From the NCBI RefSeq assembly GCF_056712565.1, contig NZ_CM160072.1: DNA of 64,000 bases; one strand, 5' to 3'. Position 1 is the stretch's first letter. Every line of letters starts with the position of its first letter. The translations under genes and the position numbers were made by a program. The notes below the pieces were generated by a model. It was not told the DNA's origin. It searched no databases and saw only the letters and a program-made list of their open reading frames with translations. Positions 22,579 through 26,084 of this stretch are shown one piece after another.

Positions 22579-22980
22579 GTGGATTTCCTCAAAAGTCAGC
22601 AGGGCAAAAGCGCCAAAAAACGGCAGATTGCCGAAAAAGGCCGCAATTATACACAAAATCCCTGAGTTTGTCGGGGGTACTGCTGATTTTAGACGACGAT
22701 CGTTTTCATTTGAAAGGAAACGCAAAAAGAAAATAATCTTTTTGCCTCCATTTATTATTTAAGATAAGGTTAATGCTCTACATGTTCTTTTTTTAATTCA
22801 AATGATATTTTTTATCTTTCTGACGTTTTAAACGTATCGGAAGACGTTATTTATTCTAATAAAAAACAACACTCTAAATATAAAATTATTTCTTGCAGTA
22901 ATTATAAAAGCCGAAAACAGAACTCAAAAACAATCTGGCTAAATAAAAGTAATAAAATTTGCTTTAAGGAAAAATTTTCT

Positions 22981-25209
22981 ATGTACACACAGACCCTGTA
23001 TGAGTTAAGTCAGGAGGCTGAACGCCTGTTACAGCTTTCTCGCCAACAGTTGCAGTTACTGGAAAAAATGCCTCTCTCTGTACCCGGAGACGATGCGCCA
23101 CAACTGGCTTTACCCTGGAGTCAGCCTAATATCGCCGAACGTCACGCGATGCTGAATAATGAGTTGCGTAAAATTTCCCGACTGGAAATGGTGCTGGCGA
23201 TTGCCGGTACTATGAAAGCAGGGAAATCAACCACCATTAATGCCATTGTTGGTACGGAGGTTCTGCCTAATCGCAATCGCCCAATGACTGCGCTGCCAAC
23301 GCTTATTCGCCATACGCCCGGGCAAAAAGAACCGGTACTGCATTTTTCACATGTCGCGCCAATCGACCATTTAATTCAACAATTACAACAGCGCCTGCGT
23401 GATTGCGATATTAAGCATCTGACCGATGTGCTGGAAATAGATAAAGATATGCGTGCGCTTATGCAGCGGATTGAAAATGGCATCGCTTTCGAAAAATATT
23501 ATCTGGGTGCTCAACCTATTTTTCATTGTCTGAAAAGTTTGAATGATTTGGTGCGACTGGCGAAGGCGCTGGACGTCGATTTTCCTTTTTCTGCTTACGC
23601 CGCCATTGAGCATATTCCCGTGATTGAAGTGGAGTTTGTCCATCTGGCGGGGCTGGAGAGTTATCCCGGTCAGTTGACGTTACTGGATACCCCCGGGCCA
23701 AATGAAGCCGGGCAACCGCATCTGCAAAAAATGCTTAACCAGCAGCTGGCACGCGCCTCGGCGGTACTGGCGGTGCTGGATTATACGCAACTGAAATCGA
23801 TCTCCGATGAAGAGGTCCGTGAGGCAATTTTGGCGGTGGGGCAATCGGTGCCGTTGTATGTGCTGGTCAATAAGTTCGATCAACAGGATCGTAACAGTGA
23901 CGACGCCGACCAGGTGCGGGCACTGATTTCCGGAACGCTGATGAAAGGCTGTATTACGCCACAGCAGATATTTCCGGTGTCGTCGATGTGGGGCTACCTG
24001 GCGAATCGGGCGCGCCATGAGTTAGCCAACAACGGTAAGTTACCACCGCCAGAGCAACAACGCTGGGTGGAAGATTTTGCCCATGCCGCGCTCGGCAGGC
24101 GCTGGCGTCATGCCGATCTGGCGGACCTCGAACATATTCGCCATGCTGCCGATCAGTTGTGGGAAGATTCGCTGTTCGCCCAGCCAATTCAGGCGTTGCT
24201 TCATGCCGCTTACGCTAACGCCTCGTTGTATGCTCTGCGATCTGCCGCGCATAAACTGTTGAATTACGCGCAGCAGGCGCGGGAATACCTGGATTTTCGT
24301 GCGCACGGGTTAAACGTCGCTTGTGAACAATTGCAGCAAAATATCCATCAGGTCGAAGAAAGTTTGCAGCTATTGCAACTCAATCAGGCGCAGGTGAGCG
24401 GCGAGATTAAACATGAAATCGAGTTGGCCCTGACCTCCACCAACCACTTTCTGCGTCAACAGCAAGATGCGGTGAATGCGCAGTTAGCCGCGTTGTTTCA
24501 GGATGATTCGGAGTCGTTAAGTGAGATGCGTACCCGCTGTGAGACACTGTTACAGACGGCGCAGAACACCATCAGTCGCGACTTTACGCTGCGCTTTGCC
24601 GAGCTTGAGTCCACCCTTTGCCGGGTGTTAACCGATGTTATTCGCCCCATTGAGCAACAAGTCAAAATGGAATTGAGTGAGTCTGGGTTTCGTCCTGGGT
24701 TTCATTTTCCTGTTTTTCACGGCGTAGTTCCCCACTTCAACACCCGCCAGCTGTTCAGCGATGCAATATCCCGTCAGGAAGCAACGGATGAGCAGATCAC
24801 CCGTTTTGGCGTTGTGCGTGAGATTTTTTCGCGCTGGTTGAATCAGCCCGACTGGGGACGGGGAAATGAGAAATTCCCGACAGAGACGGTTGATTACAGT
24901 GTGTTGCAACGAGCATTAAGCGCAGAAGTCGATCTTTATTGCCAACAAATGGCTAAAGTTATGGCAGAGCAGGTCGATGAATCTGTTACGGCAGGCATGA
25001 ATACTTTTTTCGCTGAGTTCGCTTCATGTTTGACGGAATTACAGACGCGTTTACGCGAAAGTCTGGCTCTGCGTCAACAAAATGAATCCGTGGTCAGGCT
25101 GATGCAACAGCAATTGCAGCAGACTGTGATGACTCACGGCTGGATTTACACCGACGCTCAGCTGTTACGCGATGATATTCAAACACTTTTCACGGCAGAA
25201 CGATATTGA
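22981..25209 (+). CDS. crfC: Dynamin-like GTPase CrfC (YjdA)
   Basis: 742-aa ORF; P-loop GTMKAGKST near N-terminus, long coiled-coil C-terminus. Confidence 0.9.
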   Translation: MYTQTLYELSQEAERLLQLSRQQLQLLEKMPLSVPGDDAPQLALPWSQPNIAERHAMLNNELRKISRLEMVLAIAGTMKAGKSTTINAIVGTEVLPNRNRPMTALPTLIRHTPGQKEPVLHFSHVAPIDHLIQQLQQRLRDCDIKHLTDVLEIDKDMRALMQRIENGIAFEKYYLGAQPIFHCLKSLNDLVRLAKALDVDFPFSAYAAIEHIPVIEVEFVHLAGLESYPGQLTLLDTPGPNEAGQPHLQKMLNQQLARASAVLAVLDYTQLKSISDEEVREAILAVGQSVPLYVLVNKFDQQDRNSDDADQVRALISGTLMKGCITPQQIFPVSSMWGYLANRARHELANNGKLPPPEQQRWVEDFAHAALGRRWRHADLADLEHIRHAADQLWEDSLFAQPIQALLHAAYANASLYALRSAAHKLLNYAQQAREYLDFRAHGLNVACEQLQQNIHQVEESLQLLQLNQAQVSGEIKHEIELALTSTNHFLRQQQDAVNAQLAALFQDDSESLSEMRTRCETLLQTAQNTISRDFTLRFAELESTLCRVLTDVIRPIEQQVKMELSESGFRPGFHFPVFHGVVPHFNTRQLFSDAISRQEATDEQITRFGVVREIFSRWLNQPDWGRGNEKFPTETVDYSVLQRALSAEVDLYCQQMAKVMAEQVDESVTAGMNTFFAEFASCLTELQTRLRESLALRQQNESVVRLMQQQLQQTVMTHGWIYTDAQLLRDDIQTLFTAERY

Positions 25210-26084
25210 CCAAGACGTTACTGGACGGCCCCGGTCGCGTGCTGGAGTCGGTTCATCCGCGCTTTTTAGTGGATCTGGCGCAGGGCGATGATGCCCGCCT
25301 TCCACAAGCCCATCAGCAGCAGTTTCGTGAACGACTGATGCAGGAACTTCTTGCGCGCGTGCAGCTTCAGACATGGACGAACGGCGGCATGTTAAATGCG
25401 CCGCTTAGCCTGCGTCTGACATTGGTGGAAAAACTGGCGTCGATGCTGGATCCCGGTCATCTGGCGCTGACGCAGATCGCGCAGCATCTGGCGCTGCTGC
25501 AAAAAATGGATCACCGCCAGCACTCTGCTTTCCCGGAGCTCCCCCAGCAAATTGTCGACTTGTATGAGTGGTTTTCAGCCCGTTGTCGCTGGAAGGAAAA
25601 GGCGTTAACGCAACGAGGCCTATTGGTGCAGGCGGGTGAACAGAGCGAGCAAATTTTTACCCGCTGGCGTGCTGGGGCGTATAACGCCTGGTCGTTGCCT
25701 GGGCGCTGCTTTATCGTTCTGGAGGAGTTGCGCTGGGGTGCATTTGGCGATGCCTGCCGTCTGGGAAGACCGCAAGCGGTGGCGTTGTTGCTGGGTGATT
25801 TGCGCGTGAAAGCGACACAACATTTGGCAGAGAGTATCAATGCGGCCCCGACCACGCGTCACTATTACCATCAGTGGTTTGCCTCTTCGACCGTTTCGAC
25901 GGGCGGGGAGCATGCTGATTTTTTAAGTTGGCTGGGAAAGTGGTCCACGGCAGATAAACAACCCGTTTGCTGGTCAGTGACCCAACGCTGGCGAACTGTC
26001 GCACTGGGGATGCCACGACTCTGTTCAGCGCAGCGTCTGGCGGGAGCAATGGTCGAGGAAATCTTCTCTGTAAATTTGGTGTAA
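25206..26084 (+). CDS. yjcZ: YjcZ, partner protein co-transcribed with crfC
   Basis: 292-aa ORF whose ATG overlaps the crfC stop (ATGA). Confidence 0.85.
   Translation: MTKTLLDGPGRVLESVHPRFLVDLAQGDDARLPQAHQQQFRERLMQELLARVQLQTWTNGGMLNAPLSLRLTLVEKLASMLDPGHLALTQIAQHLALLQKMDHRQHSAFPELPQQIVDLYEWFSARCRWKEKALTQRGLLVQAGEQSEQIFTRWRAGAYNAWSLPGRCFIVLEELRWGAFGDACRLGRPQAVALLLGDLRVKATQHLAESINAAPTTRHYYHQWFASSTVSTGGEHADFLSWLGKWSTADKQPVCWSVTQRWRTVALGMPRLCSAQRLAGAMVEEIFSVNLV

Follow-up and report, generated by a model that had tools for sequence, protein, structure and literature searches.

The closest described counterpart of the gene pair analyzed here is the RdcA/RdcB system of Escherichia coli K-12. Insertions in yjdA and yjcZ were seen to act as suppressors of impaired motility in a pdeH mutant and to phenocopy dgcE (Girgis et al. 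2007, as cited in PMC6510439), and the two proteins YjdA and YjcZ were later renamed RdcA and RdcB (Pfiffer, Sarenko, Possling & Hengge 2019, PLoS Genet, PMC6510439). Strains deleted for rdcA, for rdcB or for both show the same loss of CsgD, of curli and cellulose and of cyclic di-GMP (c-di-GMP) as a dgcE deletion strain, and the two deletions are not additive (PMC6510439). Two-hybrid assays in K-12 showed interactions of RdcA with itself, with RdcB and with the MASE1 domain of the diguanylate cyclase DgcE (PMC6510439). The variant RdcA-K82A, which has lost GTP binding, is active, whereas RdcA-T103D, which does not hydrolyze GTP, is inactive and no longer binds DgcE but still binds RdcB; RdcB was proposed by the authors to be a GTPase-activating or nucleotide-release factor (PMC6510439). 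Independently, a transposon screen published in 2026 and based on sorting by Förster resonance energy transfer identified rdcA, rdcB and ynjH as positive regulators of c-di-GMP (PMC13031359). Here, we describe the corresponding gene pair, crfC (also called yjdA or rdcA) and yjcZ (rdcB), in a stretch of 64,000 nucleotides from contig NZ_CM160072.1 of the RefSeq assembly GCF_056712565.1, in the following called the window, together with the promoter that lies inside crfC and the wider family of gene pairs to which it belongs.

Both open reading frames (ORFs), of 742 and 292 amino acids, are present where the first-pass annotation of the window had placed them, and the RefSeq coordinates in a 100%-identical genome agree. 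The features of the locus are as follows.

22981-25209, plus strand: crfC (yjdA, rdcA), dynamin-like GTPase of 742 amino acids with an ATG start
23101-23115, plus strand: beta-clamp-binding motif 41-QLALP of CrfC, as defined in PMC6374313, present in the translation
23197-23811, plus strand: GTPase (G) domain of RdcA, Pfam Dynamin_N, with its motifs in the translation
24954-24981, plus strand: FliA (sigma-28) promoter inside crfC that drives rdcB, TAAAGTTA-N11-GTCGATGA, 252 nt before the rdcB start
25206-25209, plus strand: TTGA stop/start overlap, with the crfC TGA at 25207-25209 and the rdcB TTG at 25206-25208
25206-26084, plus strand: yjcZ (rdcB), 292 amino acids, all-alpha partner of RdcA

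CrfC matches the NCBIfam CrfC equivalog NF007368 over residues 1-742 of 742 with 1586.7 bits (cut-off 1146) and Pfam PF00350 (Dynamin_N) over residues 73-277 with 63.7 bits (cut-off 27, E = 2.9e-17). The G motifs are found in the translation as G1 (G76-TMKAGKS-T84, with K82), G2 (T103), G3 (D236-TPG) and G4 (N297-KFD); G1 and G2 show little or no variation among 79 orthologues, in which K82 and T103 are invariant. YjcZ matches Pfam PF13990 over residues 21-287 with 472.7 bits (cut-off 27, E = 4.4e-142). RdcA of the window is 97% identical to K-12 b4109 (19 substitutions) and RdcB 96% identical to b4110 (13 substitutions). In RefSeq, the genes are named crfC and rdcB in the matching genome and rdcA and rdcB in K-12, and the yjcZ product is called 'diguanylate cyclase regulator RdcB family protein'. 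Chromosomes of E. coli ATCC 11775, NU14 and avian pathogenic E. coli (APEC) O18-type strains carry the 3.6-kb region with 100% identity. Of 5426 complete E. coli genomes, 5414 contain the rdcAB region, which thus belongs to the core genome. Compared to the K-12 RdcA/RdcB system (PMC6510439), which is the same locus, nothing substantial differs: the order yjdM / crfC-rdcB / proP, the TTGA junction and the internal sigma-28 promoter are common to both, and the differences consist of the amino acid substitutions and one base in the promoter spacer. The immediate succession of a GTPase gene and a PF13990 gene, as in the RdcA/RdcB-DgcE system, is thereby also seen in the window.

The locus is very probably the rdcA(crfC/yjdA)-rdcB(yjcZ) operon and would encode a GTP-sensing signalling module of which the second gene, rdcB, would be expressed by two routes. 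Its function is carried over from K-12 on the basis of the 96-97% protein identity. The suggestion of the first-pass annotation that the pair is a candidate two-component machine is borne out in so far as the two proteins work as one machine, but their partnership, together with their binding and the effects of the deletions, was already published in 2019. YjcZ, which it had called essentially uncharacterized, has a published role in DgcE activation, and the checks it proposed, i.e. a test of physical interaction and a comparison of single with double deletions, had already yielded RdcA-RdcB binding in the two-hybrid assay and identical, non-additive phenotypes, respectively (PMC6510439).

According to the mechanism put forward for K-12 (PMC6510439), which we carry over to this locus, the soluble dynamin-like GTPase RdcA would self-associate and bind RdcB, and nucleotide-free RdcA/RdcB would then dock on the membrane-embedded MASE1 domain of DgcE and activate this diguanylate cyclase. 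Active DgcE would raise the c-di-GMP level, by which csgD, curli and cellulose would be switched on via PdeR-DgcM-MlrA. GTP would act as an inhibitor, because the GTP-locked T103D variant is inactive and the GTP-binding-defective K82A variant is active, and the signal is proposed to be the drop of GTP when cells enter stationary phase. RdcB itself would be made from two messages. On the read-through crfC-rdcB mRNA, ribosomes stopping at UAU-UGA would re-initiate at the overlapping UUG, and the sigma-28 promoter 252 nt upstream of rdcB would give rise to an rdcB transcript that is independent of full-length crfC translation.

The association of the two genes was followed across species and in metagenomes. 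A search with a YjcZ-homologue profile yielded 80 species loci, from Escherichia, Citrobacter, Enterobacter, Kosakonia, Leclercia, Lelliottia, Phytobacter, Trabulsiella, Atlantibacter, Franconibacter and others, and a CrfC orthologue is located directly upstream of yjcZ in all 80 of them. Likewise, a dynamin-like GTPase gene directly precedes the YjcZ-family gene in 79/79 metagenome loci with upstream room, and wherever a YjcZ-family gene has a GTPase neighbour, the same order and tight spacing were seen in all cases examined. There is thus strong comparative support for the view that the GTPase and YjcZ would constitute an obligate functional pair. The CrfC orthologues outside Escherichia (L006-L083) are 770-789 amino acids long, compared to 742 in Escherichia. 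The two-gene form reaches well beyond the close relatives of E. coli, as seen at locus L175 (691-3917), where a divergent GTPase (782 amino acids) and a YjcZ protein (292 amino acids, 32% identical to the window protein) are encoded with a 1-nt overlap. A convergent ABC-3 permease gene follows at this locus, and a patatin gene, as found in the relatives described below, is absent from it.

The junction between the two genes had been described in the first-pass annotation as an ATGA overlap. The overlap of 4 nt is present, but the window reads TTGA with a TTG start (...GAA CGA TAT TGA CCA AG...): crfC ends in TAT-TGA, and the TTG of yjcZ begins one base before the stop codon. The same TATTGACC junction is found in K-12, and a 41-mer across it has an identical copy in 5131 of the 5426 complete E. 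coli genomes. The 80 species loci have ATGA in 70 cases, TTGA in 3 (all Escherichia), a 2-nt spacer in 4 and another short overlap in 3. In Escherichia a start other than ATG is used because an A as third base of the terminal Tyr codon TAT would give TAA. The annotated yjcZ start is supported by the conservation of the YjcZ N-terminus, which begins at residue 1 across genera. In the first 50 kb of the window, 6 of 49 adjacent pairs of coding sequences overlap by 4 nt (phnM/L, phnK/J, phnH/G, crfC/rdcB, basR/eptA and dcuR/S); by itself such an overlap is ordinary, and its conservation is what exceeds chance.

The best duplex with the anti-Shine-Dalgarno sequence amounts to -2.8 kcal/mol for rdcB as compared to -6.1 for crfC and -5.9 for proP. 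rdcB is thus without an independent ribosome-binding site, and its start codon is a weak TTG. As no usable Shine-Dalgarno sequence is present, coupling by termination and re-initiation is a plausible mode of rdcB translation, although its efficiency would likely be low. The overlap is an ordinary operon junction at which coupling is possible; it does not serve to hold the two proteins at a 1:1 ratio.

A second source of rdcB mRNA is the promoter inside crfC. In K-12, a FliA site was detected inside yjdA by chromatin immunoprecipitation sequencing (ChIP-seq) and concluded to drive yjcZ (Fitzgerald et al. 2014, PMC4183435), and FliA-dependent activity was confirmed there by a lacZ fusion (Fitzgerald et al.). 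Between motile MG1655 and a fliA deletion strain, the normalized RNA level dropped from 111 to 11 for yjdA and from 52 to 1 for yjcZ (PMC4183435). A FliA promoter that had earlier been predicted in the yjdM-crfC intergenic region is incorrect according to the same authors (PMC4183435). The promoter in the window has a single mismatch to the K-12 ChIP-seq motif TAAAGTTCTGGCAGAGCAGGTCGATGAA, which lies in the spacer, and its -10 element is GTCGATGA. A sigma-28-like element scoring at least 12/16 is present at exactly -252 from rdcB in 63 of the 80 species loci. As a control, windows elsewhere in crfC were scored, of which 1 in 632 reached 12/16. Furthermore, conservation averages 0.87 at the five synonymous positions in the promoter elements as compared to 0.61 at third positions gene-wide, and the five rank 3rd among 729 equivalent sets. 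Judged from these sequence comparisons, rdcB has its own, evolutionarily maintained promoter, and therefore the RdcA:RdcB ratio likely depends on FliA activity. Rather than being fixed, this ratio is probably regulated by FliA, i.e. by the flagellar regulon.

The arrangement resembles that of the sigma-28 promoter inside flhC that drives motAB-cheAW (Fitzgerald et al. 2014, 2017), which likewise lies within the coding sequence of the upstream gene, in its 3' part. Both promoters transcribe the downstream gene, are conserved across genera and constrain synonymous sites. The flhC promoter is the only one that Fitzgerald et al. emphasized as being broadly conserved, and conservation of the yjdA-internal promoter is absent from their text; the 63 of 80 species loci reported here establish its conservation across genera.

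About 16 nt past the -10 element of the sigma-28 promoter there is an in-frame ATG (24997-24999), corresponding to M673 of CrfC, and 75 of 79 orthologues have Met at this position. In the FliA transcript, this codon might initiate translation of a 70-codon ORF for the CrfC tail, whose termination would still be coupled into rdcB. The conservation of M673 may instead reflect constraints on the protein.

Upstream of the operon lies the region that separates it from yjdM.

22579-22980, no strand: AT-rich intergenic region between the divergent genes yjdM and crfC, presumably containing the crfC promoter(s)

This region of about 400 bp is 99% identical to that of K-12, with a GC content of 0.26 at 22700-22999. 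Only weak consensus-like matches to a sigma-70 promoter for crfC were found in it, in numbers at the level of shuffled sequence, and a consensus scan for a terminator after rdcB likewise gave no convincing candidate, with counts at shuffle level. Elsewhere in the first 50 kb of the window, alsC and alsB are pseudogenes (internal stop, frameshift) according to the identical RefSeq genome NZ_CP020545.1.

Several points weigh against the reading of the locus as a GTP-sensing rdcAB module with two routes to rdcB. In one study, a yjcZ single deletion had no motility phenotype (PMC4183435). The internal promoter is possibly the main source of rdcB mRNA, given the drop from 52 to 1 upon fliA deletion, and coupling to full-length crfC would then perhaps be minor. 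No RNA structure that masks the rdcB start was found at the junction, where the minimum free energy is -31 kcal/mol and the mean of shuffled sequences -30.85 kcal/mol (z = -0.05); a structure-gated rdcB start was dropped as a candidate, since the junction fold is no more stable than that of shuffled sequence. The functional evidence was all obtained in K-12 and not in this B2-type strain, and dgcE is located outside the 64-kb window. Finally, a competing function has been published for CrfC, that of a nucleoid partition factor which binds the clamp (Ozaki et al. 2013; Taniguchi et al. 2019, PMC6374313).

Among the alternatives, the one closest to the first-pass annotation, which had derived stoichiometric co-expression from the overlap, regards the latter as a coupling device that enforces equimolar amounts of CrfC and YjcZ and so makes them a two-subunit machine of fixed stoichiometry. 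We consider this unlikely. Retention of the 4-nt overlap in most of about 160 loci, the missing Shine-Dalgarno sequence of rdcB and the binding of RdcA to RdcB would all agree with such a device, but the start in Escherichia is a weak TTG, 4-nt overlaps are routine in the window, the conserved sigma-28 promoter within crfC would provide a separate rdcB transcript, and the RNA levels of crfC and rdcB are unequal and respond differently to deletion of fliA. Owing to this internal promoter (24954-24981), the single obligatory transcript expected of a coupled pair is not what the two genes have. Stoichiometric co-expression is therefore not upheld. As results that would speak against its proposal, the first-pass annotation had named the lack of a physical interaction together with independent expression of the two genes; of these, independent expression is found at least in part, whereas the lack of interaction is not, as RdcA binds RdcB.

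With still less probability, CrfC is mainly a replication-fork and nucleoid partition factor that acts via the beta-clamp, and YjcZ a co-transcribed passenger that takes no part in this. The work on CrfC as a clamp factor (PMC6374313) concerns the same protein, with the QLALP motif and the GTPase domain in common, and mentions YjcZ 0 times. It reports anucleate-cell and localization phenotypes for the crfC deletion and for Q41A mutants; the 41-QLALP motif is present in CrfC of the window, and the NCBI product name is 'clamp-binding protein CrfC'. However, QLALP including the critical Q41 occurs only in Escherichia, and the 70+ orthologues elsewhere have VLPLHFS, VQPLHFS or similar sequences at this place, whereas conservation of the GTPase motifs and of YjcZ as partner extends to all of them. 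In addition, clamp binding is GTP-independent, the in vivo evidence for it comes mostly from plasmid expression, and the deletion is without growth defect (PMC6510439). The invariant GTPase-YjcZ linkage argues against a mere passenger role of YjcZ. This distribution points to clamp binding as an addition made in one lineage and to the GTPase-YjcZ unit as the conserved core.

A further alternative derives from distant relatives of the operon. An exhaustive profile search returned 262 cluster representatives of the YjcZ family, among them a second clade with about 30% identity over the full length, which occurs in E. coli, within accessory regions, as well as in other genera (Pectobacterium, Klebsiella, Morganella, Yersinia, Plesiomonas, Providencia, Pantoea, Pseudomonas, Allochromatium, Thiodictyon, Methylomonas and Budvicia). 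The genes of this clade are part of a cassette in the order dynamin-like GTPase (about 805 amino acids), YjcZ-like protein (about 300 amino acids) and patatin-like phospholipase (about 340-357 amino acids), of which the following loci are examples.

L087, 6578-10928: GTPase-YjcZ-patatin cassette
L093, 6564-10917 (NC_017651.1, 4914127-4918480): GTPase-YjcZ-patatin cassette
L095-L174: further cassette loci

The full order is kept in 77/77 metagenome loci with room on both sides (80 loci in total). Overlaps of 4 nt occur at 65 of 79 GTPase/YjcZ junctions and at 60 of 78 YjcZ/patatin junctions, and the oxyanion-hole, GxSxG and DGG motifs of the patatin-like protein are intact in 68 of 68. Over 484 amino acids the cassette GTPase shares 42% identity with CrfC, with which it is collinear to the C-terminus. 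Cassette and rdcAB thus share a paralogous GTPase and YjcZ in the same order with the same 4-nt overlap; the cassette differs in having a third gene, which encodes a catalytically intact patatin-like phospholipase, and in being mobile or accessory rather than core. It is also spread more widely than rdcAB, reaching Pectobacterium, Yersinia, Pseudomonas, Methylomonas and purple sulfur bacteria. In E. coli, it resides in integrase-bearing islands at different chromosomal insertion sites, with AlpA, Ag43, antirestriction, RadC, CbtA/YeeU and type III restriction-modification genes as neighbours, and another cassette locus is flanked by a SNF2 helicase and a P4-type integrase gene.

Some loci deviate from this architecture. 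In the Methylomonas-type cassettes (L091, 8617-8916, and L092, 1774-2073), a 99-amino-acid ORF with no Pfam match lies between the GTPase gene and the YjcZ-like gene. At L085 (5001-7630), which adjoins parE/parC, a 532-amino-acid protein combines an N-terminal part, consisting of DUF3944 and a region resembling Ubiq_cyt_C_chap, with a YjcZ domain, and its gene overlaps the patatin gene that comes next. A dynamin-like gene is missing there, so that YjcZ and patatin form a unit that lacks the GTPase.

The existence and the architecture of the cassette are direct observations at these loci. In the literature searched, a description of it was not encountered beyond its passing appearance in an island gene list of E. 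coli O118 (PMC13182975), so that it appears to be new. A search with PADLOC v2 revealed no catalogued system: YjcZ, the cassette GTPase and the cassette YjcZ were without match, and the patatin-like protein gave a weak match to a phospholipase effector. A phage-borne cassette was ruled out, as the search of viral contigs returned one partial match only. The mobile cassette may represent a so far undescribed stress or anti-phage system.

These relatives raise the question whether rdcAB keeps their function, i.e. whether it is triggered by stress or phage and acts through a membrane-acting effector, control of DgcE having been acquired secondarily. The position of the second YjcZ clade between a CrfC paralogue and an intact patatin phospholipase in all 77 informative loci, and that of the E. 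coli cassettes beside antirestriction, toxin-antitoxin and type III restriction-modification genes in integrase-bearing islands, would favour this idea. We nevertheless regard it as improbable, to about the same degree as the clamp-factor explanation: a patatin gene is present at 0 of the 80 chromosomal rdcAB loci, rdcAB is core genome and controlled with the flagellar regulon, the cassette has no PADLOC v2 model apart from the weak effector match and is nearly absent from viral contigs, and no defence phenotype is known.

The comparison suggests that rdcAB, as a module controlling DgcE, is a branch, carried in the core genome, of a portable control unit made up of GTPase and YjcZ. As to the direction of evolution, which we infer, it is possible, and we put it forward tentatively, that rdcAB is a domesticated, patatin-less branch of an undescribed three-gene module in which YjcZ, as a putative adaptor, passes the nucleotide state of the GTPase to a membrane-acting effector. 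YjcZ would then be the conserved subunit. In the mobile cassette the lipase would take the place of the effector, and in Enterobacteriaceae the MASE1 cyclase DgcE.

What kind of protein YjcZ is was addressed by structure prediction with AlphaFold2. With 20 close homologues, the model had a predicted local distance difference test score (pLDDT) of 67.7, and with an alignment of 116 sequences spanning both clades a pLDDT of 92.3 and a predicted template modelling (TM) score of 0.91. In this model YjcZ is all-alpha, with about twelve helices and two short beta bridges. The residues W154, G157, W177-G178, G181, W224, P253 and R277 of YjcZ are invariant. Foldseek searches with it gave no match at E <= 0.001 (best TM 0.22), and the family profile searched against the sequences of the PDB returned coiled-coil-like noise only (spike heptad repeat 1, designed coils). 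In the PDB as searched, there is no structure of CrfC or RdcB; the nearest CrfC relatives are the Nostoc bacterial dynamin-like protein (BDLP) and a Campylobacter dynamin-like protein (DLP), which match at the P-loop only. No hydrophobic segment is present in either RdcA or RdcB, and YjcZ as a membrane protein was discarded for this reason. From the lack of a structural match, the coiled-coil noise and the lack of a hydrophobic segment, the modelled YjcZ is neither a degenerate dynamin nor a protein with a recognizable fold of a GTPase-activating protein or a guanine nucleotide exchange factor.

Bacterial dynamins with which RdcA could be compared are B. subtilis DynA, LeoABC of enterotoxigenic E. 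coli, Campylobacter DLP1/DLP2 and mycobacterial IniA/IniC, which are also large, self-associating dynamin GTPases encoded in a tight operon with a partner. RdcA resembles these paired dynamins weakly in sequence, at the G domain. Its partner RdcB is a 292-amino-acid, all-helical non-dynamin, unlike their dynamin partners, and the known output of RdcA/RdcB is activation of a diguanylate cyclase, as opposed to membrane remodelling. That rdcAB encodes a membrane-remodelling pair of the DynA, LeoABC, Cj-DLP1/2 or IniA/IniC type with YjcZ as a degenerate second dynamin subunit is highly improbable, even though many bacterial dynamin genes are described as occurring in operon pairs (PMC6104087) and CrfC has weak PADLOC matches to LeoBC (E = 5e-6) and LeoA (1.5e-4) as well as P-loop matches to Nostoc BDLP (2J68) and Campylobacter DLP (5OWV), as CrfC is soluble and without a membrane-binding motif (PMC6374313, PMC6510439), no membrane-binding paddle or hydrophobic insertion of the BDLP kind was found (maximum Kyte-Doolittle value over 19 residues 1.21), and YjcZ has no GTPase match in Pfam or NCBIfam and no structural match to DLPs.

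For the biology of E. coli and its relatives, an RdcA:RdcB ratio that probably depends on FliA would bear on the timing of the switch from motility to biofilm formation. The confident YjcZ model and the family alignment provide a basis for the mutagenesis of RdcB. For the family as a whole, the results suggest that the GTPase/YjcZ pair is an ancient unit of control that may be attached to different effectors, and the mobile cassette would offer a second experimental system in which the role of YjcZ can be studied.

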